A stretch of DNA of 64,000 nt from a virus. A program made the position numbers and the translations under genes. Below the pieces are notes generated by a model, which had not been told where the DNA came from, did not search any database, and saw only the letters and a list, made by a program, of their open reading frames with translations. The DNA is taken from the IMG/VR virus record IMGVR_UViG_3300028563_000011, positions 46,592-110,591 of that record, one strand, 5' to 3'. Positions 42,998 to 57,109 of the stretch are shown here, in pieces. The number at the start of each line of letters is the position of its first letter. Position 1 is the first letter of the stretch.

Positions 42998-45565
42998 CTA
43001 CCTACCTTTGAACCAAGAGTCAGAAGAGAACGTACCAAACTCAGTCATATCAGCCCAATTAGGGCCCTGTGAAAGCTCAACGGATATAGGAACATTGACA
43101 AAGTCAAATGGAACATCCAACATAATATCCAAAATCTTTTCTGCCAATATGTCTACACGACTTTCATCAATCCGTACCCAAGTTAAGTCATCATGGACAT
43201 TCAACTCAGGTTGAAGCTCAGGGTCTCCAGTTTCGGATAAGCGACACATAGCATCCATAACAATCTCAGCAGCGGTCCCCTGTATCGGGGAATTATAGAC
43301 CATATTTACGCTAAGTGGGCCATGTCTCCGTCGTCCGGTTAAGCACTCTACGTAACCATACTTATTGTAGAATTCTAATTGTTTCTGCTGCCAATTATAA
43401 ACACCTTCGTATTCTTGCCAGAAAGCATCGTAGTGTGGCCTTAAAACATCCACAGGGATATTCAAATACCCCGAAGCTGATTCAATTTTTGCTCCAAAGA
43501 ACAAGGGGAACGTCCACTCATTCTTAATGTCTCCACGGAAGGTCTTCATAACCTTCTTGTCTTTAAGGAATTGCTCCCCTCCTATTCTCCTAGGGTAAGA
43601 GTAAGCAATACGCTCAGCCCAATCCATATGCACATCATAATTCTCCCAAAGAGCCTTACAAAATGCTCTATCCCTTGTAGCCATAGCTATAACACGAGCT
43701 TCAATCTGCCCAAAGTCAATAGCTAGGATCGTATTACCCTTTAAGGCTTTAACAATACGCCGGAGCTCCTTAAGCTCCTCAGCGCGCTTGGGCCAGTTTT
43801 GCCAATTAGGAGATTCAGCACTAAGTCTACCTGTTTCTGCAAAGATTGTATTAAATATGCCATGAGACAACCCATCAGGGTAGATAATCTCGCTACCCAA
43901 CTTCATAGGTTCAATATAAGTTGACTTACACTTGGTATCCTTCCGTAAGCTAACAAGCAACTTAGCTAAGGGGTGGTTTATCTTTGCTAGAACTTCTTCA
44001 TCACAAGAATACTTTTCCTTCTTGGTAAATTTGTCAACAACAATACACTCATCACGTTTGAGCATATCGTAAAATACGTGAAGAGTATCAGGGTGTGAAG
44101 CTGGGTTGTAGTTCCTTCCAGTCTCTCTACGGAATTGTTGCACGACAGGAAGAGAAGCAATTTCTTCCTCAACCTTTTTAATTCTAGTCTCAAATTTCTG
44201 CCCAAGAACATTAACGGTTTCTTGGTCTATCGGAATACCCTTCATTTGGGTAAGCACAACTGTAGGCACTCTACGTAAAGACAACTCATAGACATTCATT
44301 AGGTTTTCGCGCTCTAATTCCTCCTCAAGCTGCTCCCAAAGCTTGGTATGATACTTAGAATCCAGAGCATTATAGCGTAAAACCCTATGAAGTTCTTGCT
44401 TGTCTAAATTCTTTCTATCAACATTTGATATCTTCTTTAGGTTAAATCCAAAGTAACGCTGGACCAAAAACTCCAAAGCAAAACAACCTGGCTTACCCTT
44501 TCCTTTACGCTCATCTATAACCGACGCTGCACTTGCTGTATCCTCCCAAGGACTACAACGGAGGTACTCCTTACCAAAAAATACGCCTGTCCATTCCATC
44601 TCGAAAGAGAGATTATGGACAACCTTTACAGCTTTGGAGCGTAAAAACTGGCACCAATGATCAATAATTATTGCTTTTTGCTCAGAATTAAACTGAGCAC
44701 TGCGGTGATCGAATGGAAACGCAATACTTCTAATACCATCACTAACCGCAGCACTCAGTATCTTGGCCTTAGACTCATAAGGTCTAAGACAATTTGTTTC
44801 ATAGTCTAGACCAATAACCTTTTGAGTGGAAGCCCAACCCAACGCCTCAATTATTTTCTGAACCCCTTTGTCTCCACCTTCCAAGATTATCTCAACCCCT
44901 TCCAAGGCCTGCTCAGTGGTGTGACATTCTGGAACCGGTAACCCAACCTTAACCTCAGCAAAGGCTCGCTTCAAATCTAGAACAAAAATCCGCTCTTCTT
45001 CCGACCCAACAACTTCCAGGGAAGAACTCTTCTTCCGACCTTGTCGTAGTAAATACGCTGGATGTGTAAAAGGGTAGTACCAACAAGTATGGTTCCCAAC
45101 CCGAACAGGCATCTTACGCCCACGCCAAAGCGTTATGCCGGAAAGACCACTCACCCAATTTAGGGGGACATTACCAAAACCAAATATAGCTTCAGGCTTT
45201 GATAATTCAATATCCCTTGTAACCGAGGGCCGACAACATTCGATCTCAACACGTTCCGGCGTACGATTTTTAGGAGGCCTACTTCTTACAGTATTGTTCC
45301 ACCTTAGATGCTTTTCCCAGTATTTAGGAACACGCGGCCGTAAAAGTTGTCCACTCTCACCTATAAATTGTATACCTTCGTCAATCTCGTCGGCACCAGG
45401 GGCTTCCCCCAACATATAAATTTTAGGGCGTAAAGAACCAGTAGGTTCCATACGCCCCGGTTGAACACGTAATGGACAAGCTTTACATTCCAACCTATGG
45501 AGTAGGCCAGCCTCCTGCTTGGAGGCTACATCTCCCGATCCTTCATCTGAAAATAGTAGCCCCAT
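42998..45565 (-). CDS. Family A DNA polymerase with N-terminal family-4 uracil-DNA glycosylase domain and 3'-5' exonuclease
   Basis: GEAPGADE...F.GESG...HPAYLLR (UDG); DYET and HNLSFE (exonuclease); TGRLS, DFGQIEARV, IQGTAA and VHDDL (PolA). Confidence 0.92.
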   Translation of the reverse strand: MGLLFSDEGSGDVASKQEAGLLHRLECKACPLRVQPGRMEPTGSLRPKIYMLGEAPGADEIDEGIQFIGESGQLLRPRVPKYWEKHLRWNNTVRSRPPKNRTPERVEIECCRPSVTRDIELSKPEAIFGFGNVPLNWVSGLSGITLWRGRKMPVRVGNHTCWYYPFTHPAYLLRQGRKKSSSLEVVGSEEERIFVLDLKRAFAEVKVGLPVPECHTTEQALEGVEIILEGGDKGVQKIIEALGWASTQKVIGLDYETNCLRPYESKAKILSAAVSDGIRSIAFPFDHRSAQFNSEQKAIIIDHWCQFLRSKAVKVVHNLSFEMEWTGVFFGKEYLRCSPWEDTASAASVIDERKGKGKPGCFALEFLVQRYFGFNLKKISNVDRKNLDKQELHRVLRYNALDSKYHTKLWEQLEEELERENLMNVYELSLRRVPTVVLTQMKGIPIDQETVNVLGQKFETRIKKVEEEIASLPVVQQFRRETGRNYNPASHPDTLHVFYDMLKRDECIVVDKFTKKEKYSCDEEVLAKINHPLAKLLVSLRKDTKCKSTYIEPMKLGSEIIYPDGLSHGIFNTIFAETGRLSAESPNWQNWPKRAEELKELRRIVKALKGNTILAIDFGQIEARVIAMATRDRAFCKALWENYDVHMDWAERIAYSYPRRIGGEQFLKDKKVMKTFRGDIKNEWTFPLFFGAKIESASGYLNIPVDVLRPHYDAFWQEYEGVYNWQQKQLEFYNKYGYVECLTGRRRHGPLSVNMVYNSPIQGTAAEIVMDAMCRLSETGDPELQPELNVHDDLTWVRIDESRVDILAEKILDIMLDVPFDFVNVPISVELSQGPNWADMTEFGTFSSDSWFKGR

Positions 45566-46605
45566 TACTCTTCATACGCGCCAAGGATATAGATCTCAGA
45601 ACTCTTACCAGTCAAAATCAAAGCAGTTTTACCTATAGCAAAACTAGTAGAACACCTTGACAGTTTAGTCAGCTGCTTCAACCCCAAAGCAATCTGTTCT
45701 GTTCCCCCTTCTTTTGCTAATACCAACTTTTCGTTCAAAGAACCTTGAGCCAATTTACCAGTAACACTTAATTCCTTCTTGTTTACAGAAAGCTTAACAT
45801 AATTCTCTTTAGGCCCAGCCAAAATATTAGCGCGGGATAAAGCCTCCCCAAGAAGTTCTGGAATATCAACAAAGTTGTCTGTATCAGAAGCGTGCGTGTC
45901 CAAGACATTGGGCAATTCGACAACATTCTCATTATCTAATAAGGTTGAACAAACCTGAATATCTCCTAAATTAGCTACAATCATGTCTTCAGTAAAGACA
46001 ACTTCATGACCTTCCTTTCCCAAGGAAATAAGTTGAGCAACAAATTTATGAGGCAATATCATCTTGTGAAGTTCAGGAGCAAACTTACCATCCACTTCAA
46101 CCGAGGCCAAAGCCTTGGAGTCAGTAGAATACAACCCTATAAAGTCTCGACTAGGGAACAACACTACACCGTAGTGTTCCGAACGCTTGGGTTGCTCAGC
46201 CTCCAATACACTAACAATCTTCAACCCCTCTATAAACTCTTTCGACAGATTAAACGAGAAAGACCCAGCTTTCTGGTCTGTAAATCCCCAAGGATTACTT
46301 GACTCAGCCATAATAGGGATAGAAGTCTTAGAGCGCCCCATTTGAACAACAAGTTCACCCTTAACTACATCCAAAAAGATCTCTTTAAGTGTTGAACTAT
46401 TAACCAAAGAAAGTAAGGTACTACCTAAAACCCCACCCTTAATATCTCCTTCAAAGGGTAACCTAATCCCTAAGCCACCATCATAAGCGTAAAGATATTT
46501 ACCATCAAACCAAAAGTGTTTAAGCTCAGGTATAGCCCCACCAGAAGAGAGAGCTGGCTTTAAGCTCTTGAGAGTTTCAGAGAAAGTACTGCGATCTACG
46601 TTCAT
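45565..46605 (-). CDS. Sliding clamp (DnaN beta-like)
   Basis: Size, repeated AYDG/STDS strand motifs, and position next to the polymerase and clamp loader. Confidence 0.7.
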   Translation of the reverse strand: MNVDRSTFSETLKSLKPALSSGGAIPELKHFWFDGKYLYAYDGGLGIRLPFEGDIKGGVLGSTLLSLVNSSTLKEIFLDVVKGELVVQMGRSKTSIPIMAESSNPWGFTDQKAGSFSFNLSKEFIEGLKIVSVLEAEQPKRSEHYGVVLFPSRDFIGLYSTDSKALASVEVDGKFAPELHKMILPHKFVAQLISLGKEGHEVVFTEDMIVANLGDIQVCSTLLDNENVVELPNVLDTHASDTDNFVDIPELLGEALSRANILAGPKENYVKLSVNKKELSVTGKLAQGSLNEKLVLAKEGGTEQIALGLKQLTKLSRCSTSFAIGKTALILTGKSSEIYILGAYEE

Positions 46606-46913
46606 TTGAATCCTGTTTCTTCTGGAGTACCCATAGGTAATCCTTTACGCACATTCATAACCATACGTGCTAATTGCCTTCTACTAATACTTAATGCTCC
46701 TAACTTTATAGCTTCCTTTCTCTTTGACTTTGTTATGTCATAATGATCCCCCTGATACCACTTACGTAAAACGCCAATACTATCCGCCATACTATGGAGT
46801 TCTTCCTCAGTATCAGCAATCATATGACACATAATATATGTCCGACCAGGAACATGTTTAAGCTTGAACTCGGCCTCCATATCGTCCACGTATACTGTCA
46901 TAACGCGGTACAA
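46602..46913 (-). CDS. DUF4031 protein
   Basis: VYVDD...MCHMIADTEEELH..A..IG...W.QGDHYD. Confidence 0.85.
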   Translation of the reverse strand: MYRVMTVYVDDMEAEFKLKHVPGRTYIMCHMIADTEEELHSMADSIGVLRKWYQGDHYDITKSKRKEAIKLGALSISRRQLARMVMNVRKGLPMGTPEETGFK

Positions 46914-47404
46914 TTAGCACGGTCAGTATGATGGTTTTCTTCAGTCAGAGGAACCGGCTTTGCTTCTACAGCCTGTTCAAGCTTTGCTTTTTCAAACATA
47001 TCCTTTAGGATATCCTCCGCCTTAATAAGATCTTCTTCACTAGACCACTTAGCAAGATAAAGAATTACTCTTGCTTCTTCATTTGGTAAGTCATTCGCTA
47101 ATACAAACTTAGAAACTTCATGATAGATCCATTGTTGACTAAACCGGGCCGAACCTCGGAACGCAACCACTTCATACATAACAGAATGAAGCTTTTGCAC
47201 AGCGTGCAAGGCTTTCTCTAAATCCTGAATACCTTCAATACCTTCCTTTTGACGCCAACGCACAAGGTACTTTGAAGCATAGCCTTCGAGATAAGACATT
47301 CCAACTCGAACAGCAAAGTCCCAATGCTGGTAAGAAGAATTATAGTGGTTTCCACCAATTTGGTAGTTATTCGGATCAGTCACTTCATTCTCCTTTCCAT
47401 CCAC
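46898..47404 (-). CDS. DUF3310/SaV-like protein (putative nucleotide-related)
   Basis: QIGGNHY...WDF...KYLVRWRQK.G..DLEKA. Confidence 0.75.
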   Translation of the reverse strand: MDGKENEVTDPNNYQIGGNHYNSSYQHWDFAVRVGMSYLEGYASKYLVRWRQKEGIEGIQDLEKALHAVQKLHSVMYEVVAFRGSARFSQQWIYHEVSKFVLANDLPNEEARVILYLAKWSSEEDLIKAEDILKDMFEKAKLEQAVEAKPVPLTEENHHTDRANCTAL

Positions 47405-48462
47405 TCAACAACTGCTAATTTCCAATCTGGAGCTATCTTTGAAGCTTTAATACCCTCTAAAGCCTTAAGGCGGTCCCCTGAACGCCACAACTCATACCCT
47501 TCAAACAAAGGCGAAGCCGTATTCGTAAACCAACTATTATAGTAAGTTATAGGAGGTTCCAACTTATACACCCGTAACACTCGGCCCCCTCTAGTACCCA
47601 TAAAGCACATAAGATCTCTGTCAAACTTATCGGGAACTGTAACTATTGGAGTTACTCCCTCATCATAGTAGTTATTGAAGTTATACCCCAAAGTTGTCTT
47701 AAATTCCCTGACCACCCCCTTCACCTTATGCAAGATGTGCTCATAAATGTGGTAATTATTAGAAACTTGGTAATAGTAGCCAATTCCAACACCAATTCTA
47801 GCGGCCATGTATTCTTGCAATACCGAAAAATGTACTGCATTTGCGCCGTATGCTCCCCAAACAATATCATTTGAACGACAACACACTGTTATATCTAACT
47901 TAGATTGAGTATACCCCCCAATAAAATTGGCCACCTCCTCTTCAGTATCTCTAATCCTAAAATAAATATGTGTGTTACACGGTAAGTCCTTTTTCTTTGC
48001 CCCAAGATCAGCTACTGGATCCCACATTGTAAGAACCGCTTGACGACTCTTCGGATCTGCTCGCAACAACTCCACAATAGTATTAAGCTGGTCTGGAAGA
48101 CAAGGATGACCGCCGGCATCAAGATCAAAATGATTCCTCCAACGAAAACCATAAGCTCCATGCTGTATCCCCCCCTCTTCAGCAAAACGTGAAGAAAAAT
48201 CCTTCACAAAGTAATCTAACCAACGAGCATCATTACTCCCACTTAACATCCATAAACTCTCCATCAAATGAAAGAATGGATTAGCATCTCGAATTGGGGA
48301 AAGTAATACCCTCTCCTGAGAGTTGTGATAAACCGTTGTAACCGGGCAAGGAGAGACCAATACCCTTCCTACTCTAGAATCCTCATAATGACCCTCAGTC
48401 AATAGGTATTCAATCCCCATCGGCAAGGCTTCACGAACGTTCCGTACATGTATAACTCTCAT
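47380..48462 (-). CDS. Thymidylate-synthase-like dUMP hydroxymethylase
   Basis: RDANPFFHLMESLWML, AYGFRWR, DLPCN, RSNDIVWGAYGAN (Asn indicates dUMP specificity) and NYHIY; located in a hypermodification cluster. Confidence 0.8.
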   Translation of the reverse strand: MRVIHVRNVREALPMGIEYLLTEGHYEDSRVGRVLVSPCPVTTVYHNSQERVLLSPIRDANPFFHLMESLWMLSGSNDARWLDYFVKDFSSRFAEEGGIQHGAYGFRWRNHFDLDAGGHPCLPDQLNTIVELLRADPKSRQAVLTMWDPVADLGAKKKDLPCNTHIYFRIRDTEEEVANFIGGYTQSKLDITVCCRSNDIVWGAYGANAVHFSVLQEYMAARIGVGIGYYYQVSNNYHIYEHILHKVKGVVREFKTTLGYNFNNYYDEGVTPIVTVPDKFDRDLMCFMGTRGGRVLRVYKLEPPITYYNSWFTNTASPLFEGYELWRSGDRLKALEGIKASKIAPDWKLAVVEWMERRMK

Positions 48463-48746
48463 TGAAACAAATCCTCTTTATAACTTGAGATACCACCTTG
48501 TTCAGTACAACGTACCCCTAACCTAAAAGGAAGGAGATCAAAACGCCAGTACTCCTTATGGCCACACTGACTACAATGACAAATCTCTACATTTTCATAC
48601 TGAGAAAGAACCCAAATATCAGGTTGGTCTTTCTGATAAGCCCATAACTTACAGTTGGGACATTTTGGGGAGACTCCAGACAAATCTCGGATTTTGCCTT
48701 CCACATACTTCTTTACCCATCGCCAAAATTTAACATTCAAAAACAT
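48459..48746 (-). CDS. Zn-ribbon hypothetical protein
   Basis: CPNC...CSQC. Confidence 0.45.
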   Translation of the reverse strand: MFLNVKFWRWVKKYVEGKIRDLSGVSPKCPNCKLWAYQKDQPDIWVLSQYENVEICHCSQCGHKEYWRFDLLPFRLGVRCTEQGGISSYKEDLFQ

Positions 48747-49282
48747 GGATTCCCTCTCACTTTAGCCATATACTTAATAACATTATCAGCGTCTTCCACC
48801 ATCCTATTCATAGTAGAAAGCATGTTCTGTATTGAATCCTCAACATCATGAATAATTGGTAACGCATACTTATTCCCCATATTCAGTTCAACCCTACCAC
48901 ATTCCCAAAGATCTAACAAATCACACAACTTAACCCTTACTTTATACAACCGCCAACTAGGATCATTCTCAAAATTAGAGACATCTCCTCCCATTGCTTC
49001 TATACTTTGCTTCTCGATACGGTCATGTTCCTCCTTAAACACAGGATTCTTACTCTTTACCGGGTAAGGAGCATCCCCAGAAACTATTTCCCCACAATCA
49101 TGCCAAAGAATGTAATTACTTACTTCCGGAGGCATCATACCCCATATTTGGGTATAAATCCTCATGACCTGGAATACATGTTCTCCAACCGTTTGCCGGT
49201 GATGAACTGGCCAAGTATGGTAACGCAAAACCTGGCCTGCAAACCTAGCTGTCGTAAGAAAAGCTTGGCGAGTTAATCTCAT
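48737..49282 (-). CDS. HD-domain nucleotidase (YfbR-like)
   Basis: RYH...QTVGEH...LWHDCGE...GD.P.PVK...KLCD. Confidence 0.8.
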   Translation of the reverse strand: MRLTRQAFLTTARFAGQVLRYHTWPVHHRQTVGEHVFQVMRIYTQIWGMMPPEVSNYILWHDCGEIVSGDAPYPVKSKNPVFKEEHDRIEKQSIEAMGGDVSNFENDPSWRLYKVRVKLCDLLDLWECGRVELNMGNKYALPIIHDVEDSIQNMLSTMNRMVEDADNVIKYMAKVRGNPCF

Positions 49283-49292
49283 TAAACACCTT

Positions 49293-50174
49293 TTAGTAAG
49301 CTGTTTCTGGTCTGTATTTAGACCGAGGACGACCCTCCCCGTTCTTTACCCTTAGGTATTTGTCAGCCTCACAAAGACAATTTTGAAGATCCATCAAAGT
49401 AATATCCTCATACTGAGGACCCAACCTTGAGATTACTTCTTTACGCCATTGCTGTAATTGATGGTTCCAAACCGAAGGAGCATGTCTTGTCCTCAAAGGG
49501 TATTCCATAAGGCGATTAAAGCCTCGGATACTACCCGGACCTTGAGGAGCCCAAGTATAAATATCCGTAGCTTTAGCTAACAACGGTGTCCAAGTCCAGT
49601 CATCAACAACCTGGCCCGCCATAAATCCACCCCAAAACTTTAGGGTAGTTAATTCTCGCCATACTTCAAACTTGGATGGTGCTTTCATTTCCATCAAAGC
49701 TAATAGTAAACCAATATGTGGCCCCAACCCATGAACAATTATCTCGTTGATTATACCAAAATGTTTCTTCTTACCCTGCCATTCCCTAGCAGACTTAATC
49801 ATATACGCCCCAGTCCACAACTTCTCCTTATTCAAATGCCTTGAATCCATAACCTCAAGTACAGATCCCCAATCTATTCCATTCTGATACAACCCTGCAT
49901 CTATTACTGCTTTAATAGTAGGAGGCCAATTACACCACCTACAAAAGGCTGAGAACTGTAGAAAAGAATGAGCCCCAACCCGTACAAACTGAGCCTCTGT
50001 CAATACGTTATTACATAACCAAACTGAGACCCTATCTTCCCTTCTCCGCACATTACAAAACCTAAAAGTTTGCAGAATGGGGTCTTCCGTCCAAGGAGAC
50101 GGAAGCCCTGCAAGCTTCTTATTACGTATAGAATCCCGCTCTGCAATCCAATAGATCAAGGGCTCTATATTCAT
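49293..50174 (-). CDS. 5-hmdU DNA kinase helical-domain protein (aGPT-Pplase1 family)
   Basis: ER..I...K..G...PWTEDPIL..FRFCNVRRREDRVS, GFMAGQVVDD, GPGSIRG and QNCLCEADKY. Confidence 0.85.
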   Translation of the reverse strand: MNIEPLIYWIAERDSIRNKKLAGLPSPWTEDPILQTFRFCNVRRREDRVSVWLCNNVLTEAQFVRVGAHSFLQFSAFCRWCNWPPTIKAVIDAGLYQNGIDWGSVLEVMDSRHLNKEKLWTGAYMIKSAREWQGKKKHFGIINEIIVHGLGPHIGLLLALMEMKAPSKFEVWRELTTLKFWGGFMAGQVVDDWTWTPLLAKATDIYTWAPQGPGSIRGFNRLMEYPLRTRHAPSVWNHQLQQWRKEVISRLGPQYEDITLMDLQNCLCEADKYLRVKNGEGRPRSKYRPETAY

Positions 50175-51136
50175 TTGGGCTGTTCTTGAGGTTGAGGGTT
50201 GGGTTTAGTCATAATGTTTGAGATAGCTTCAAACATTCCTGGAGTAATAACCATCGGCGGGCCTTTTGTCTCAAGCCCCTTACCTAAACCCTCCTGGATT
50301 TTAAGCTGAGCCAAAGCTTCTAAGACCGACATGACCGGCAAAAGCTTCTCGGCTGCATAGCGGTCATTCACAGCCTTTTGTACGTCCTTATCAAACTCAA
50401 AGGTATTTGCCCAACCAATAAAGTCGAGCGAAATACCTTTTATTTCTGCCCACTGTTGAAACTCTTTTTCAACAATGTCCATAATCTGAACAGCTTGAGC
50501 ATTTGCCTCATCAAAGGTACGCTGATTAATCTGGTTGCAAACTAAGGTTTGTACCTTCTTACGCCCCACATCATTCATTACATCGCCCAAACTGCGACCA
50601 TAGTACACAGAAGTAAAGATCACTTCACCAGAAGTGCGGTCGCCTTTAGGAGGAGTCACTCCAAATTTATAGAGAAACTTAGCAGCATCCTTTTCCTGAA
50701 CCGAAGTCCCAATGGAAACTCCAACAGTAATATTCAAACCTTCCTTACTTTGACAAGGGAAGCCCTCCTTTCGAGGAGAACTCCCTCGATTAACATCATC
50801 CACCCATTCATGGGAATACGTGGAACGATCAAGAATAACCAAACGTCCTGTTGGAACATAGTAATCCCAAGCCAAGTACCCACCAGAGTTGGTTAATTTC
50901 TGATGAGGAATAATAAAGCGCTTTACGGCTAGTTTATTAGAATTTAGGAAATCTTCTGTCTCAAACTTAGTCTGAGACCCTTTCGTATCCCCAACATCAG
51001 GGATCCAAAAGGCAGATTCATTAGGCATAATCGTATACGCCTCGGTACGCTCGGTCTTCTCAAAGAAGGCAAAAGTAGGAGTTGACGCCACAATCACTGC
51101 GGTTGTTGTCAACAACATTTTCCATTTGTTAGTCAT
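50171..51136 (-). CDS. SPFH/band-7-like protein
   Basis: N-terminal signal, SKEGLNITVG, and a C-terminal helical region. Confidence 0.6.
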   Translation of the reverse strand: MTNKWKMLLTTTAVIVASTPTFAFFEKTERTEAYTIMPNESAFWIPDVGDTKGSQTKFETEDFLNSNKLAVKRFIIPHQKLTNSGGYLAWDYYVPTGRLVILDRSTYSHEWVDDVNRGSSPRKEGFPCQSKEGLNITVGVSIGTSVQEKDAAKFLYKFGVTPPKGDRTSGEVIFTSVYYGRSLGDVMNDVGRKKVQTLVCNQINQRTFDEANAQAVQIMDIVEKEFQQWAEIKGISLDFIGWANTFEFDKDVQKAVNDRYAAEKLLPVMSVLEALAQLKIQEGLGKGLETKGPPMVITPGMFEAISNIMTKPNPQPQEQPK

Positions 51137-51407
51137 TAGTCTTAATACTCCTAATAAGGGTTTTGATAGGCTTTATCCAGATACTCACCAACAGAACAAC
51201 AAAAATTGCTGTTATAGCAAATGTTGTTCCCAACAACAGGTGATTCCCATAAGAAAACACTAAATACCCAGGGTCGCTACTATTGAATTGCTCTCCAGCA
51301 AGTTTAGACTGGACCAAGGTAGCAACAGGAGTGTAAGCCGCCATTATAGATACGTACATCCCTCCTAGTACTACACTAGCGGTAACTCTAAGCGGTATAC
51401 TCATCAT
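51129..51407 (-). CDS. Two-TM membrane protein
   Basis: Two hydrophobic helices; coupled to the SPFH gene. Confidence 0.6.
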   Translation of the reverse strand: MMSIPLRVTASVVLGGMYVSIMAAYTPVATLVQSKLAGEQFNSSDPGYLVFSYGNHLLLGTTFAITAIFVVLLVSIWIKPIKTLIRSIKTND

Positions 51408-51415
51408 ATTTCTCC

Positions 51416-51982
51416 TTATTTTGCTTCCCTTAGTAGTTTCAAGATAACCTCAACACCATCCTTTTGTGATAAAGGAATCACTGTCATCTTATCATCAGAG
51501 GTTATTCTCTTTGTGGATACAAATAGAGACTTGTACTTGTTTACAAGGTTTTTAGGATCAAAAGGACGAGTAATACCTTTCTTATCCCGACGACCTTGGG
51601 TATTACTTATACATACTTCTAATGAAGTATCCATAACCGCAACAATAGACTCTTTACCGTAAACCTCCATCGCTTTTTGAACACAACCAAAAGAACCACT
51701 ACAAAGTACTCCTTCAAACAAGACATGCCCACGCTTAGCGTATTTCTCAATTAATTCGGGGATGAGACTAAAGGGTTGGATCTGATCCGCACCCCCCGTT
51801 GGGGTACGGTAAGGCCCTAACACAAAAACCGGCTTGGCCCAATACTTCCAAGAAAGCTGATAAGCCTCCGGCTGCTTAGGACCTAAAACCCCATACAACG
51901 GCTTAGGTGAGTACATACGTAATATAGCACGTACAATTGTGCTTTTGCCACTTCCATTTGTTCCAGATATATTTATTACCAT
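51416..51982 (-). CDS. P-loop kinase, 5-hmdU DNA kinase-like
   Basis: INISGTNGSGKST, LGPY...GGAD and VLFEG; adjacent to the amino acid:DNA transferase. Confidence 0.75.
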   Translation of the reverse strand: MVINISGTNGSGKSTIVRAILRMYSPKPLYGVLGPKQPEAYQLSWKYWAKPVFVLGPYRTPTGGADQIQPFSLIPELIEKYAKRGHVLFEGVLCSGSFGCVQKAMEVYGKESIVAVMDTSLEVCISNTQGRRDKKGITRPFDPKNLVNKYKSLFVSTKRITSDDKMTVIPLSQKDGVEVILKLLREAK

Positions 51983-52761
51983 TAGAATAACATACCTTTT
52001 GTCTTTATTTCTTCAGGACAATTCACTAATAGTTTCTCTGCGGTTGATCCCCATCCCTTCAAACCTTGTCTTATTTCATGAATATCTTTACCTACCCAAT
52101 AGTGACCTTTATGATATGATTTGTATTTACAAAGTATGGTCTCGACCTCCTGTACCCCACAAGGTCGATCCCTTGTAGGGGGGGCCTTAAATCGGCTAAA
52201 AACGGCCAAGAGGCGCTTCATTTCGACTTCGGGGGACTTACCCCCAGCAACGAGCTCTAGCCCTTCCCTAGGCTCCTTATAGATATAGCAAAGATCTTCC
52301 GGAAAGGTAATAGGAACACTCAAACACCTTTCCAACATATCTGCAGCTTTGAATGCAATCCAAGGACCAAACAAAGGCCATCTCGTTATATAATTAAGAA
52401 CACTTTCAAGTGTTCTTGCTTCAAGCAAAGTTATAATATAGGTAGTAGGCTTATTTTTACTTAGCACCTCAACAGCCTCAATACACTTCTCCCCTCGAAA
52501 ATGACGGCGTTCCGCTCCACGAGGCCAACGTCCTCGAACAAAAGATGGCTGCTTATTTAAGGCGGCCATCTTCATACACTCCCAGAACTTACTTTGTTCA
52601 CTAAGCCAAGCAGCAGACCCCAAGTGGTAAAAGCACCAATATGCCAAAAGTAGCTTAGATAATTGTTCCTGATCTAGCTTTGCTTTTACTATGGCTATAT
52701 AAACAGGGTCGAGATCCCCCATCTTGATAAGTTGTTCACCAAATTCTTCGATCTTCATCAT
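51982..52761 (-). CDS. Amino acid:DNA transferase (aGPT-Pplase2/AADT family)
   Basis: GDLDPVY, AYWCFYHLG, WPRGAERRHFRG, FGPWIAFKAADM and EVETILCKYK. Confidence 0.85.
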   Translation of the reverse strand: MMKIEEFGEQLIKMGDLDPVYIAIVKAKLDQEQLSKLLLAYWCFYHLGSAAWLSEQSKFWECMKMAALNKQPSFVRGRWPRGAERRHFRGEKCIEAVEVLSKNKPTTYIITLLEARTLESVLNYITRWPLFGPWIAFKAADMLERCLSVPITFPEDLCYIYKEPREGLELVAGGKSPEVEMKRLLAVFSRFKAPPTRDRPCGVQEVETILCKYKSYHKGHYWVGKDIHEIRQGLKGWGSTAEKLLVNCPEEIKTKGMLF

Positions 52762-53954
52762 ATGAAACGGTCGAATTCTTCTACGCTTCCAATCTGGACA
52801 CCACTACTCAACTTGTCTTTGATTGCTATTAACTCCACATTTGTATCGTGTCTTAAACAATGAAAATTACAATCTTTGGACGCATCCAACCGTTCCATCA
52901 CTTGTTGACGCTGCTGGCCTTTCCAAACCTCACTAAAACTGTGTTGATTCACATCCCCCACCTGCATCCTATCTTTCCCACGCCAATAAGGGCATACAAA
53001 AACACCTGTAGGTGTCACTGTTGTCCTCATATGTGTTGAGGGACAACTCTTGTAGCTTTTGGATTGATTGGACGTTACTCCTTCCAGGGAATACTTGAGA
53101 TTAATCGCCTTAATGATCTTAAAGCTATCAGTCTCCAACTCATCAAGCCGAGCAACCTCTCTAGCAGCCTCTTTCATCAAGTCTGGAGAATGCTTCATCA
53201 AAGCATGATTTATTCCATCCCGCCATTGATACGTAGGCTTCACTTCAAAATAATCACATCCAATATCTCTTGCTAAAACTGCTCCATCGTAAATTTCACC
53301 GATGTTACTTGGAATACCAACACCATCAGCGGGGGTCTGAATCAAAAACGAGTACCCTAACTTACCTTTCTTGGACTTTGACAATAACCTCATATTATTT
53401 ACAATCTTGTCAAATTTGCTCTTCCCACCCTTTGTCGGACGTAAAACGCTAAACATCCTATCAGTAGCAGCATCCATAGATACTCTTGTCCACTTTGAAT
53501 ACTCAGAAATCACTTCTAAGTGGCGATCTATGAAACTACCATTTGTAGTAATGCCAATATGAATATCATTCTCCCCCAACAACCTAATCAATTCCCCAAT
53601 CTTTCTATGAGCTAACGGCTCTCCCCCACCAATCAAAATTACGGCCTTTACTCTGCAATCAATAAACTCTCTTCCTAGATTCAACAACCGCTCATCAGTA
53701 AAACGATTACCTAAAGCAACCAAATCCTCACTAATACACCCAGGACAAGCAAGGTCACAAGCTGCAGTCGGGTCTAACTCAACCACAAACGGAGAATGAT
53801 TCCCCTCAATCCAATCTGTATTACTCACTCGATCAAGAACTTTCTCTTGATACAATTTCTTGGTTAGATTCATTGTGATTGACATTTGAAAGAATCCTTT
53901 ATCCGTACTTTTGTGTGGAGTCTTGGTCTTCTCGCTTTTTAAGCCACTTCTCAA
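52758..53954 (-). CDS. Radical SAM enzyme with SPASM/twitch domain
   Basis: CDLACPGC, GGGEP, TTNG and C-terminal Cys cluster. True start is probably near MSITM (about 53885). Confidence 0.9.
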   Translation of the reverse strand: MRSGLKSEKTKTPHKSTDKGFFQMSITMNLTKKLYQEKVLDRVSNTDWIEGNHSPFVVELDPTAACDLACPGCISEDLVALGNRFTDERLLNLGREFIDCRVKAVILIGGGEPLAHRKIGELIRLLGENDIHIGITTNGSFIDRHLEVISEYSKWTRVSMDAATDRMFSVLRPTKGGKSKFDKIVNNMRLLSKSKKGKLGYSFLIQTPADGVGIPSNIGEIYDGAVLARDIGCDYFEVKPTYQWRDGINHALMKHSPDLMKEAAREVARLDELETDSFKIIKAINLKYSLEGVTSNQSKSYKSCPSTHMRTTVTPTGVFVCPYWRGKDRMQVGDVNQHSFSEVWKGQQRQQVMERLDASKDCNFHCLRHDTNVELIAIKDKLSSGVQIGSVEEFDRFI

Positions 53955-54843
53955 TGTGAGTCTTTACAAGCTCAACCGAATTACGATTGTTATGAAGGCT
54001 AGTATAATGCCAACCTTCATCAAGCCAAGCATCATAAGGCTCGCACTTTGGCCAAGCCTTACCATCAAACCTATTCTTCAATAGCCCTTCATAGCAAGAG
54101 ACACTTGGAACATTACCCAAAGCCTCTTCTAAGAAAGCTTTACACCAAAGCGTAGCATTCAATAACTCCTCGGGAGTCTTCGGCATAAAAAAGTGTCTAA
54201 ACTCAACTGTGTCCGTCTGCATCAACTGTCGTAAATTTACACAATTCCTGGGCACGATTGCCCAATGAAATTTGCCAGTTTCCTCATGAACAACTTCAGC
54301 CTGAAAGAACTCTAAAGGTGTCCTTGCCTTCATCTGTACTTCTAATCGGCGTTTTGACAAGAGCGTATGATGATCCCTCAATCGCTTCTTATAATTTTTC
54401 ATAGACATCCTTGGGTTTATTAAAGGAGCAGGCCAAGATATAGGGTCAATAATTGGTAATAACTCCGGCATAGCCAAGTGAATAAAAGTCTGGAGCCGCT
54501 TCAACTTACTCAAATCATCTCTTAACCCCGGTACCCGAACATGGATATTCAACCCAGAGCGATAATTGGAAGTTGTCTCTGGCCACCTATGCATAATCCA
54601 ATCAAACTGATCAACAGGCCCACCAGCAGACTCTGAAGGTACAGTAAGAATTTCTCCACCTAAATGATAGGCTTTGCCTTTTCCATCAACCGCAACTCCA
54701 TTTGAGTTTACGTTGTGATGTTCTGCTTCATCAATAGCCATCCCCGGCATCAGGGGTTCACTATTGGGCCAATCAACAAGTTCGAGCTCCGCACCATATG
54801 TCCACTTATTTGAATCACAACTATATTTATGTGTTGTAGCCAT
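53899..54843 (-). CDS. Putative amidoligase (COOH-NH2 ligase, glutamate-cysteine ligase fold)
   Basis: TYGAELE, GGEI, SGLNIHV and VNL...TVEFRHF. Confidence 0.75.
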   Translation of the reverse strand: MATTHKYSCDSNKWTYGAELELVDWPNSEPLMPGMAIDEAEHHNVNSNGVAVDGKGKAYHLGGEILTVPSESAGGPVDQFDWIMHRWPETTSNYRSGLNIHVRVPGLRDDLSKLKRLQTFIHLAMPELLPIIDPISWPAPLINPRMSMKNYKKRLRDHHTLLSKRRLEVQMKARTPLEFFQAEVVHEETGKFHWAIVPRNCVNLRQLMQTDTVEFRHFFMPKTPEELLNATLWCKAFLEEALGNVPSVSCYEGLLKNRFDGKAWPKCEPYDAWLDEGWHYTSLHNNRNSVELVKTHIEKWLKKREDQDSTQKYG

Positions 54844-54857
54844 ACATAAGAGCCTTC

Positions 54858-55694
54858 CTACGAAAGTGCTGACATTAATTCATGAGCACACCAACCAGCC
54901 GCTAACGTACCATTCTTAGCTCCGCCGGTCGCAACCCATAACCCAGGTTTTACCTCTTTGAGCAAACAAGGCTTCTCCACATGGTAAGGACGAATACCAA
55001 ACAAACGACTGGGCGCTGTTGTTAACCCAACCGCCTTAGAACAACGGTCCAAACTCTTCAACTCATACGCCTTGTTCCAATTCTTCCACAGAATTGAAGT
55101 CCCATCCCCAACCCACAGACCATCCCCACGATTAAATCCTACAATTTGCTTGTATGGGGCCCAAGGTTGCACAAAAGGCTGATCAAGTTGATTTTCAGGC
55201 CACAAAAAAGCTACACCCGCTAATCCCTTTTGTTCCACTTCAGGTACTAGCAACTCAGTCCAAATACCTGCTGCTACTATCAGCGTCTTGGCTCTTATAG
55301 GGTAATGCAAATTAGATTGACACAAATTAGATTGACAATGAAGTAACCAACAATCACTTTCTTTCCTGATTCTTTTTACTGAGGCCTGCTCACGTTCCAG
55401 ACACAAAATGTCTATGGGCGGTATCCAAAAGACCCTTGTATCGATTAATTTGCCAACCTTAAAAGAAACTTCAAGTACCCTATACAATTTATTCAGAGTT
55501 TCTAATGCCGGATCATAAATGGTTTTGCCTAATGATGTAAACCAACTGTGTTTCATTAAACAAGCAGCAGGAATGCTCCCCGAATCATTATAACCTCCAT
55601 CTATAACAAGAACCCTCCGACCAATTGATCGAAGGGCTTTTGTAATAACCGAGCCAAATATACCGGCTCCTATAACAACAACGTCTTGAATCAT
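54858..55694 (-). CDS. FAD-dependent oxidoreductase (DAO/glycine oxidase-like)
   Basis: VVVIGAGIFG, IVAAGIW, FGIRP and ATGGAKNG. Confidence 0.85.
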   Translation of the reverse strand: MIQDVVVIGAGIFGSVITKALRSIGRRVLVIDGGYNDSGSIPAACLMKHSWFTSLGKTIYDPALETLNKLYRVLEVSFKVGKLIDTRVFWIPPIDILCLEREQASVKRIRKESDCWLLHCQSNLCQSNLHYPIRAKTLIVAAGIWTELLVPEVEQKGLAGVAFLWPENQLDQPFVQPWAPYKQIVGFNRGDGLWVGDGTSILWKNWNKAYELKSLDRCSKAVGLTTAPSRLFGIRPYHVEKPCLLKEVKPGLWVATGGAKNGTLAAGWCAHELMSALS

Positions 55695-56171
55695 TCAAGA
55701 AAATGCCCTCTAAATCATGTCCTATCCTGTAGGCCTGGCCAAGCCAATGACCACTTAGACTATTAGGTCTTATCAGCTACTAAGATACACAAGGGTTAGT
55801 CCAGGCAGAGATATCCTTTTCAGACCAATCCTCTGGGTATATGTCGTATACCGCAAATAGAATTGGATCAATAGGCTCTTTCGTGGTTACCTTATTACCA
55901 CCTTGGCGATACTTATATTCCTCTTTTGGCTTGTCTTCTTTAGTCATAGCCTACTACCCCATTATTAGGAAGTGTACCCCCTTGCCTAGGCCGGTGAGGT
56001 ATCAAAGACCCTTAAATGTTGGGTTAAGGGGCCTTCCCATTCTCCGTTTAAGGTCCAACCGCATTTCCACCAACAATAGCGCGCTTTAGACCCAAGGTAT
56101 TTCACCTTGCTTTCCTTACCTAGGTTCGGGACGCTTGCCGAAGTTGATCGTCCAATCAAAGGCGACTTGCG

Positions 56172-56432
56172 TCATAGCGACGAAAACCACATGACGAACA
56201 ACCAGATCCCGCCACCGGAAGCGAGCAGCAGTCCGCCGACCAGAGGGATGGCTAAAAATGCGGGAACCACGTCCCCACGGATAGTGGATGTCAGCCACAT
56301 GGCGCCAAGGGAAAGGAGCAAACCAGTAACGACCATCAAGAGGGCGATCCACTTCATTGTCTTACATCTAATCCTTAAGTCTAACCCTATACGGGCTTCG
56401 CACCTGTAGGAGCCTAAAGGGAATGAAACCAA
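56172..56432 (-). CDS. Small membrane protein
   Basis: Two hydrophobic helices, likely starting at MKWIALL. Confidence 0.4.
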   Translation of the reverse strand: MVSFPLGSYRCEARIGLDLRIRCKTMKWIALLMVVTGLLLSLGAMWLTSTIRGDVVPAFLAIPLVGGLLLASGGGIWLFVMWFSSL

Positions 56433-56464
56433 CTAGGTTTCAAACCCTCCAACTTAGCATACCT

Positions 56465-57109
56465 TTACTCAGTAACCTCAACTTCACCCAAACCTTGGAA
56501 ATAACGCAGGTTTGAGTAAGGCACCCCAGAGGCTACAAGTTCTGCCACGGTCATACCATCTCGATACTTTTTGAAGTAGTTAAACAACTTCGTACCGGCG
56601 CGGTGCGGGTTTTCCTTAACCATGACCTTGATTTTAGCATCCTTACTGAACAAAGGCTTACGACCCTTCGGTCCTACACCATTTCCAGATTTGGCGGCTT
56701 TTGCAGGCTTGTCAGCTTCAGTTGTTGACTCCTCAGCCCCAGCCTCAACACTTTCGGTAGCTTCACCTTCAGTAGCTCCCTCAACGGGAGCCTCCTCCGG
56801 CTCATAAACATGAGTCTCAGCATTACTCACTTTACTACCCTTCTTCTTTGCCATTGCTTGATCCTTTGTAGGTTTGATTTCAGGAAGAACCAAAAGCGTA
56901 AAGGGTTTCTTTTCCGCCTTGGCTACGATTGTAGCGTTAACCCAAACCTGGGCTTCCTCCGAGAGTTGATCCCACTGTGCATCCGAAAACTTACCGTGTG
57001 CCTTTTCAGCCACACGAAGAGTAAAATGTTCAGCGGTCTCACCAGATTTCGGAGTTAGCTCAGTTGCAGCTAACAATTCCGCCTGTACTTCTGCTTGCAC
57101 TTCTGCCAT
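56465..57109 (-). CDS. Hypothetical protein with acidic linker and putative C-terminal DNA-binding domain
   Basis: C-terminal ENPHRAGTK...YRDGMTVAE module. Confidence 0.5.
   Translation of the reverse strand: MAEVQAEVQAELLAATELTPKSGETAEHFTLRVAEKAHGKFSDAQWDQLSEEAQVWVNATIVAKAEKKPFTLLVLPEIKPTKDQAMAKKKGSKVSNAETHVYEPEEAPVEGATEGEATESVEAGAEESTTEADKPAKAAKSGNGVGPKGRKPLFSKDAKIKVMVKENPHRAGTKLFNYFKKYRDGMTVAELVASGVPYSNLRYFQGLGEVEVTE

Follow-up and report, generated by a model that had tools for sequence, protein, structure and literature searches.

A cluster of twelve abutting or overlapping minus-strand open reading frames (ORFs) occupies positions 46898-55694 of the 64,000-nucleotide stretch of viral DNA analyzed here (the window), and its product is probably an undescribed DNA base, a 5-(acylaminomethyl)-2'-deoxyuridine (dU). 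The window corresponds to bases 46592-110591 of the IMG/VR virus record IMGVR_UViG_3300028563_000011, which is 110,591 bp in length and rated complete by CheckV. We propose that 5-aminomethyl-dU, generated in DNA by a route of the type known from Pseudomonas phage PaMx11, is N-acylated with an unusual acid by an ATP-dependent amidoligase, and that a radical S-adenosylmethionine (radical-SAM) enzyme makes the acid or its precursor. Taken as a whole, with the upstream steps included, this reading is modestly probable. Thymidine hypermodifications shield phage DNA from restriction and CRISPR nucleases, and they are a source of enzymes for site-specific DNA chemistry.

The route to the primary amine can be modeled on PaMx11, for which the conversion of 5-hydroxymethyl-dU (5-hmdU) to 5-PmdU, then to N-alpha-GlyT and finally to 5-aminomethyl-dU has been shown; PaMx11 gp46 and gp51 of phage M6 are both glycine:DNA transferases (PMC8989533, Lee et al. 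2021). Crystal structures define the key residues of gp46 and gp47 (PMC11472151). In gp46, D24, W146 and K150 touch the glycine, Y47, Y51, E92, D262 and E265 make up the pocket for the phosphate, and R94 and H95 form the DNA wedge. In gp47, W51, the Y180 wedge, Q182, Y244 and K268 serve as wedge and flipped-base residues (PMC11472151). The window encodes a counterpart of each. Its amino-acid:DNA transferase (AADT, or aGPT-Pplase2; 51982-52761) scores 55.2 bits with PF18724 (cut-off 26.2), shares 37% identity with each of M6 gp51 and PaMx11 gp46, and retains residues D24, Y47, Y51, E92, R94, H95, W146, K150, E243, C247, D262 and E265 of gp46. The flavin adenine dinucleotide (FAD) enzyme (54858-55694), of the D-amino-acid oxidase (DAO) type (PF01266; phrog_16743, E 4.7e-66), is 44% identical to PaMx11 gp47 across 99% of its length and retains K48, W51, F52, P179, Y180, Q182, N205, Y244 and K268. 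The residues defined by the crystal structures are likewise kept in the closest relatives of the two window proteins. We infer that the AADT is of the glycine type. Since the glycine-binding and base-flipping residues of gp46 and gp47 are conserved, 5-aminomethyl-dU is the likely intermediate of the pathway. A first-pass annotation of this DNA had suggested that the FAD enzyme could make 5-aminomethyl-dU, and its close relationship to the PaMx11 N-alpha-GlyT oxidase/lyase, with the DNA-contacting and base-flipping residues kept, supports this.

All eight enzymes of the first-pass annotation are encoded by intact minus-strand ORFs where it had placed them, and for every one but the amidoligase the family was confirmed by profile searches against Pfam and PHROGs, together with the comparison with PaMx11 and M6. 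The thymidylate synthase (TS)-fold enzyme (47380-48462; PF00303, E 1.7e-21, 77 bits; phrog_5131, E 3.8e-95) is 38-41% identical to PaMx11 gp51 and M6 gp58, and it is the putative dUMP hydroxymethylase and source of 5-hmdU; hydroxymethylase rather than methylase chemistry is taken from context. An HD-domain, YfbR-like 5'-deoxynucleotidase (48737-49282; PF12917, E 1.9e-08; phrog_6047, E 2.4e-26), the counterpart of PaMx11 gp52 and M6 gp59, would deplete the thymidine nucleotide pool. A conserved 168-aa member of the cluster, nucleotide-kinase-like or DUF3310-like (46898-47404; phrog_5839, E 2e-28, with weaker matches to nucleotide-kinase PHROGs), is the counterpart of PaMx11 gp53 and M6 gp61, and its homologs adjoin the TS-like gene in most related loci. 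The P-loop 5-hmdU DNA kinase (5-HMUDK; 51416-51982) is 35% identical to PaMx11 gp49 (E 6e-23) and 31% identical to M6 gp54 (E 5e-13), with a weak match to PF18748 (20.5 bits, cut-off 27). An HMUDK_hel, or aGPT-Pplase1-like, helical protein (49293-50174; PF18723, E 2.2e-40) is about 30% identical to PaMx11 gp50 and M6 gp55; the latter is dispensable in vitro. With a TS-fold source, a P-loop kinase and an AADT with an intact pocket all present, the assignment of the cluster to 5-hmdU-based thymidine hypermodification stands. The window thus resembles the PaMx11 system for 5-acetylaminomethyl-dU (5-AcNmdU) in having homologs of gp46, gp47, gp49, gp50, gp51, gp52 and gp53, at 30-44% identity, and in the expectation of 5-aminomethyl-dU. 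It differs in having no gp48/GNAT gene; in its stead are an ATP-dependent ligase and a radical-SAM enzyme.

The ligase is a 314-aa, Amidoligase_2-like protein (53899-54843) with homologs and a fold that point to the carboxylate-amine ligases of the glutamine synthetase (GS), glutamate-cysteine ligase (GCL) and YbdK type. Many of its 147 homologs, among them ones down to E 1e-45, carry PF12224 by precomputed annotation, and 25 alignment columns are invariant, including G17, E19, E21, E64, R95, E183, R199, R205, E214, R216 and H217. The alignment-based model has a pLDDT of 92.9. A Foldseek search with this model returned weak rows only, all from the GS/GCL superfamily. In a VIA-align fold search the top 19 matches were all carboxylate-amine ligases (Z 5.7-10.2), with the next row at Z 4.4; the matches comprise YbdK-like proteins, GshF, GCL, glutamine synthetases I-III, PafA/Dop and GmaS, and the best is the YbdK-like structure 1tt4 (Z 10.2, root-mean-square deviation 4.7, 223 aligned residues). 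The presence of PF12224 in many homologs, together with the GS/GCL/YbdK fold of the model, upholds the predicted assignment as a GS/YbdK-type carboxylate-amine ligase.

The settings in which this ligase occurs provide insight into its role. Cluster genes were mapped on 47 loci from viral contigs, 26 from metagenomes and phage Simon, an isolate from sewage, each of which encodes a relative of the amidoligase. In the largest group, the amidoligase is found with an AADT, a gp47-type FAD enzyme and a kinase, in the place that the acetyltransferase (gp48) holds in PaMx11. In a second setting it accompanies an M6-type AADT, a pyridoxal phosphate (PLP) decarboxylase and a radical-SAM isomerase similar to spore photoproduct lyase (SPL), and in a third it lies near Tet_JBP oxygenases. 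The first two settings each lead to a base that bears a primary amine, 5-aminomethyl-dU (5-NmdU) or 5-aminoethyl-dU (5-NedU), with the glycine carboxylate removed. Because both pathways leave a primary amine and no glycine carboxylate, acylation of the base amine with a soluble acid is the simplest role for the ligase. That the amidoligase acylates 5-aminomethyl-dU had been proposed before, with glutamate as a possible donor. The acylation remains the best reading, given the gp48 slot and some 70 loci with amine-ending pathways, but nothing points to glutamate. The combination of AADT, FAD enzyme and amidoligase had also been taken as unusual, but dozens of viral contigs contain it, and Lee et al. 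2021 had already drawn attention to contigs that encode amidoligase domains without a known function (PMC8989533). A 112-kb relative with the same replication genes (L005, 9202-14593, on the same contig as L103) carries the amidoligase with an M6-type set, consisting of a PLP enzyme, an SPL-like radical-SAM enzyme and an AADT, and has neither a phosphatase nor a twitch radical-SAM enzyme. This set argues that tailoring modules have been swapped within one phage lineage.

The usual companion of the ligase is a low-molecular-weight (LMW) phosphatase (PF01451), which directly follows it in some 30 of the 47 viral loci (30 on the same strand, with 6 more weak matches on the opposite strand) and in 11 of the 26 metagenome loci. 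Clusters that combine AADT, FAD enzyme, amidoligase and LMW phosphatase, known from phage Simon (PQ683277) and from some 30 loci of IMG/VR and metagenomes, have an amidoligase of the same family (35-50% identity), placed as in the window with respect to the FAD enzyme, AADT and kinase. They differ from the window clade, which has a twitch radical-SAM enzyme and no phosphatase, and in which the amidoligases form a separate, supported clade. The amidoligase arm is thus common in metagenomes, usually with a small phosphatase, and the rare part here is the twitch/SPASM radical-SAM partner. One locus (L020, 9659-11338) has a single long ORF that matches both amidoligase and LMW phosphatase, perhaps a natural fusion or an artefact of ORF calling.

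In the window, which has no phosphatase, the radical-SAM gene begins 13 bases past the amidoligase stop. A radical-SAM gene directly follows the amidoligase in all six loci in which the latter is at least 54% identical (the window, L003, L004, L101, L102 and L120), and L101 and L102 share the window order of FAD enzyme, amidoligase and radical-SAM enzyme. About 17 further amidoligase/radical-SAM protein pairs were matched by equal size of the longest contig for each. In a tree that includes the window, L003 and L004, the radical-SAM-linked amidoligases form one clade (SH-aLRT 98), nested among the phosphatase-linked ones. In L003, a close relative on a 137-kb contig (14272-15728), the module of amidoligase, radical-SAM enzyme, FAD enzyme and AADT is kept, with a Tet_JBP oxygenase as the source of 5-hmU and a Ploopntkinase3-type kinase replacing the TS-like enzyme and the gp49-type kinase. 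The retention of the module with a changed 5-hmU source argues that the four genes work as one DNA-directed module.

The radical-SAM enzyme itself (52758-53885; PF04055, E 1.4e-17, 64.8 bits; PF13186, 23.1 bits, cut-off 21.5) has 375 aa when read from the ATG at 53885, as in all homologs; the TTG-initiated ORF that extends to 53954 is an over-extension. Its cysteines are invariant, both in the motif C43-x3-C47-x2-C50 (CX3CX2C) and at C281, C298, C339 and C343. The model (pLDDT 86.5) has DesII, SuiB, SkfB, BlsE and anSME as its nearest solved folds. By its motifs, the protein qualifies as a twitch/SPASM radical-SAM enzyme with a C-terminal cysteine-rich domain of the putative auxiliary-cluster type. 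It falls in no named family, as the NCBIfam search gave only generic N-terminal matches far under every cut-off. More than 1000 homologs were found, mostly non-viral, with a mean column identity of 72% and more than 100 columns invariant between phage and cellular copies. The cellular homologs are 50-77% identical to the window enzyme. In species-representative genomes, copies of 50-66% identity occur in Gammaproteobacteria, Desulfobacterota, Lachnospiraceae, Selenomonadales, Campylobacterota, Bdellovibrionota and others, and some cellular copies lie on megabase contigs. In the tree of the family the phage copies are nested within the cellular ones on short branches, next to L052, a 6.8-kb contig of a betaproteobacterial metagenome-assembled genome with the order radical-SAM enzyme, ATP-grasp ligase, family 2 glycosyltransferase (GT2) and DegT, and without an aldehyde dehydrogenase (ALDH). 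This topology indicates that the enzyme was recruited by the phage from cells.

The cellular copies have a characteristic setting, an operon of GT2, radical-SAM enzyme, ALDH, ATP-grasp ligase, small EamA protein and DegT aminotransferase. Among 38 cellular loci, the ATP-grasp ligase stands beside the radical-SAM gene in 31 and the ALDH in 33. The operon (L052-L092, for example L066, 7009-13387) often also holds a methyltransferase and a 633-aa protein without a Pfam match, and it spans at least six phyla. It looks like an Arn-like pathway of amino-sugar decoration that uses a radical-SAM-derived acyl group. We found no paper on this operon, nor any on an amidoligase tailoring step. In two fusion proteins (P0244 and P0245) an AMP-binding adenylating domain at the N-terminus precedes a complete copy of the radical-SAM enzyme (41% identity), and a third (P0246) has a radical-SAM enzyme of the same family fused to an NAD-dependent sugar epimerase/dehydratase. 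The phage and bacterial arrangements share the radical-SAM enzyme, paired in both with an ATP-dependent carboxylate-amine ligase and an amine-generating enzyme. They differ in the ligase, which is an ATP-grasp protein in bacteria and of GS fold in the phage, and in the amine, which would be an amino sugar in the former and a DNA base in the latter. None of the other genes of the cellular operon was found when searched for in the phage; ALDH, GT2, DegT and flippase are absent. Because the family keeps company with three unrelated types of enzyme that activate carboxylates (ATP-grasp ligase, adenylating domain and GS-fold ligase) and with an amine-making enzyme (DegT in cells, the flavin lyase in the phage), the radical-SAM enzyme and the ligase are best read as a portable cassette that places an unusual acyl group on an amine. 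That phage and cellular copies are so alike favors a shared small-molecule role for the radical-SAM enzyme. An independent later step, as first suggested for this enzyme, is less likely than a part in making or shaping the acyl group together with the ligase.

Known finishing enzymes were sought in the entire 110,591-bp genome. The earlier remark that the cluster has no PLP decarboxylase or GNAT gene is true of the whole genome, in which PF00291 and PF00583 gave no match at E 1. In tblastn searches of the genome, the PaMx11 gp48 acetyltransferase found nothing better than E 3.3, and M6 gp52 and gp53 nothing better than E 2. The LMW phosphatase (PF01451) likewise had no match at E 1, and ALDH (PF00171) was absent by profile search. 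These four Pfam families are thus missing from the genome; other PLP and acyltransferase families were not searched individually.

The following mechanism can be proposed, in which the steps up to 5-aminomethyl-dU are assigned by close homology and the ligase and radical-SAM steps from context only. The TS-fold enzyme would make 5-hydroxymethyl-dUMP, and the HD nucleotidase and the kinase-like protein would bias the pool such that 5-hmdU is built into DNA. There, the P-loop kinase would phosphorylate 5-hmdU, the AADT would exchange the phosphate for glycine to give N-alpha-GlyT, and the gp47-like flavoenzyme would oxidize the glycine and leave 5-aminomethyl-dU. The GS-fold amidoligase, using ATP, would then activate a soluble carboxylic acid and join it to the DNA-borne amine, a step that would replace the gp48 acetylation of PaMx11 and yield 5-(acylaminomethyl)-dU. 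The twitch/SPASM radical-SAM enzyme, as the cassette partner of the ligase, would convert a common metabolite into the unusual acid or a precursor of it; its cellular relatives may do likewise beside ATP-grasp or adenylating ligases in operons for amino-sugar decoration. A more specific version of this proposal, that the phage captured half of the bacterial cassette of radical-SAM enzyme and ligase and that its DNA bears the same rare acyl group as envelope amino sugars, is tentative.

Several observations weigh against the proposal. The window amidoligase has no Pfam match even at E 10 and no PHROG or NCBIfam match, and a sequence search of the PDB was empty. The phage has no ALDH, the enzyme that usually stands between radical-SAM enzyme and ligase in cells; should the radical-SAM enzyme yield an aldehyde, the host would have to supply an enzyme for it. 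Most amidoligase-bearing phages have an LMW phosphatase instead of the twitch radical-SAM enzyme, and ligation as such therefore does not need the latter. The nearest cellular neighbor in the tree, L052, could itself be mobile DNA. The high conservation between phage and cellular copies argues for a shared small substrate, short of proof, and from the gene neighborhood one cannot tell whether the radical-SAM enzyme acts before or after ligation.

This last point bears on the strongest alternative, in which the radical-SAM enzyme acts after ligation and tailors the DNA-bound acyl or aminoacyl group by DesII-like deamination, BtrN/anSME-like dehydrogenation or BlsE-like decarboxylation; the cellular enzyme would then tailor an acyl group already on the amino sugar. 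The closest solved folds are indeed those of tailoring enzymes (DesII, BlsE, anSME, SuiB and SkfB), the gene order in the window, L101 and L102 runs from FAD enzyme through amidoligase to radical-SAM enzyme, and M6 gp53 is a precedent for a radical-SAM enzyme that modifies DNA. Yet 60-77% identity with the cellular copies, and the invariance of more than 100 columns, is hard to reconcile with a switch to duplex DNA as scaffold in place of a sugar linked to a nucleotide or lipid, and the fusions of AMP-binding domain and radical-SAM enzyme suggest action next to the acid-activating step. The phage-clade copies are slightly less acidic than the cellular ones (their net charge is about -5 to +3, where the cellular median is -6.5), but the difference is small and the ranges overlap; net charge was discarded as a hint of DNA binding, as it does not discriminate. 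On balance we regard tailoring after ligation as somewhat unlikely.

A second alternative reverses the polarity of the ligation. The amidoligase would activate the carboxylate of N-alpha-GlyT and couple to it a soluble amine (ammonia, an amino acid or a polyamine), giving a glycinamide-type base, with the FAD enzyme acting on another intermediate or branch. GS, GCL and PafA-type ligases do activate the carboxylate of their first substrate, PafA on a macromolecule, and N-alpha-GlyT has a free carboxylate. The ligase nevertheless co-occurs with a gp47-type oxidase or an M6-type PLP decarboxylase, both of which remove that carboxylate and leave an amine, and it sits in the N-acetyltransferase slot of PaMx11-like clusters. 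As the gp47 residues are also fully conserved, the glycinamide route is clearly improbable.

It is very improbable that amidoligase and radical-SAM enzyme act off DNA, on a small metabolite, the cell wall or a protein, and that the final base is 5-aminomethyl-dU. Phage amidoligases have been predicted in the literature to modify peptidoglycan, about a dozen amidoligase loci have no AADT within 10 kb, and the radical-SAM family is cellular and linked to sugar pathways. Against this, the FAD and AADT genes flank the pair in a compact block of genes that all run in one direction, and the four-gene module stays intact when the source of 5-hmU differs, as in L003. Many of the seemingly lone amidoligase loci have Tet_JBP oxygenases and so are still contexts of DNA modification, and the phage holds no other gene of the cellular sugar operon.

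An M6/PaMx11 hybrid route, in which the radical-SAM enzyme is a gp53-like isomerase that makes C-alpha-GlyT from N-alpha-GlyT, is scarcely credible: the window shares with the M6 pathway to 5-NedU (gp51, gp52, gp53 and gp54) a kinase, a glycine-type AADT and a radical-SAM enzyme, yet the shared superfamily and the glycine-type AADT are all that speaks for it, since M6 gp53 matches the genome no better than E 3.7, is SPL-related where the window enzyme is of the twitch/SPASM type nearest DesII, SuiB and BlsE, and has true homologs in the M6-route relatives L005, L020, L026, L028 and L046, while the window enzyme, as tblastn query against the phage collection, finds no M6-like phage and the genome has no PLP decarboxylase. 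Compared with the M6 isomerase, as suggested earlier, the window enzyme shows no relationship beyond the superfamily, and the M6-type route is rejected as contradicted by the sequence data.

Three genes within the cluster had escaped the first-pass annotation. An SPFH/Band-7 gene (50171-51136; PF01145, E 1.6e-05) has no homolog in any of the related loci compared, and the gene that it overlaps and is paired with, for a 92-aa membrane protein with two hydrophobic helices in its translation (51129-51407), was seen in this genome only among these loci. The pair is inserted between the HMUDK_hel and kinase genes (50171-51407), which in L004 are separated only by a 90-aa ORF. The SPFH gene is probably an insertion outside the modification pathway, and the pair may be a membrane scaffold unrelated to DNA modification. 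The third gene encodes a small 95-aa Cys4 protein (CxxC...CxxC; 48459-48746), identified from its translation, with a weak match to the N-terminus of phrog_8828.

The minus strand carries nearly all genes of the window. The 770 bp upstream of the FAD gene (55695-56464) hold only small ORFs and three minus-strand terminator-like hairpins, and this interval is probably the boundary between a primase block and the modification operon. A promoter scan gave promoter-like sites at chance level and only the few hairpins in the gap at 55.7-56.5 kb. Between the primase and the cluster (56465-57850, minus strand) are two proteins without a family, of 214 aa and 224 aa, the latter with a weak hint of sigma-70 region 2. 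They were considered as parts of the module and rejected, as both L004 and L005 keep them although the tailoring set of L005 is a different one. On the other, downstream, side are a DUF4031 gene, a sliding clamp and a family-A DNA polymerase (42998-45565, minus strand) with an N-terminal uracil-DNA glycosylase (UDG)-superfamily domain at residues 42-181 and a 3'-5' exonuclease domain. Such UDG-fused family-A polymerases were recently reported for phages with T-modified genomes (PMC13697223). The UDG-fused polymerase, the sliding clamp of its own and the genome of about 110 kb set this uncultured phage apart from PaMx11; it is not Mesyanzhinovviridae-like, and a megablast search of the phage collection with the cluster gave no match to a near-identical phage. 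DUF4031 proteins like that of the window (46602-46913, minus strand) recur in or beside thymidine hypermodification clusters (L033, 7950-8237; L034, 9699-9986; L047, 11226-11570; L048, 3539-3730), lying in L033 and L034 between the FAD and amidoligase genes, and may be an unrecognized accessory of these pathways.

A paper of August 2026 lists four kinds of tailoring enzyme, the radical-SAM isomerase, the PLP decarboxylase, the flavin lyase and the acetyltransferase, and no ligase. If our reading is true, an ATP-dependent amide ligase that acts on an amine of duplex DNA would be a fifth kind, and a possible tool for attaching chosen acids to DNA. The published reconstitution assay for PaMx11 and M6 makes the claim directly testable. 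If the phage did capture its cassette from bacteria, the cluster would hold the first ATP-dependent carboxylate-amine ligase and the first non-isomerase radical-SAM enzyme in DNA hypermodification, and the phage DNA a previously unseen base, 5-(acylaminomethyl)-2'-deoxyuridine with a non-acetyl acyl group. The radical-SAM enzyme links the phage pathway to an undescribed envelope-sugar operon of many bacterial phyla, and solving one would explain the other.

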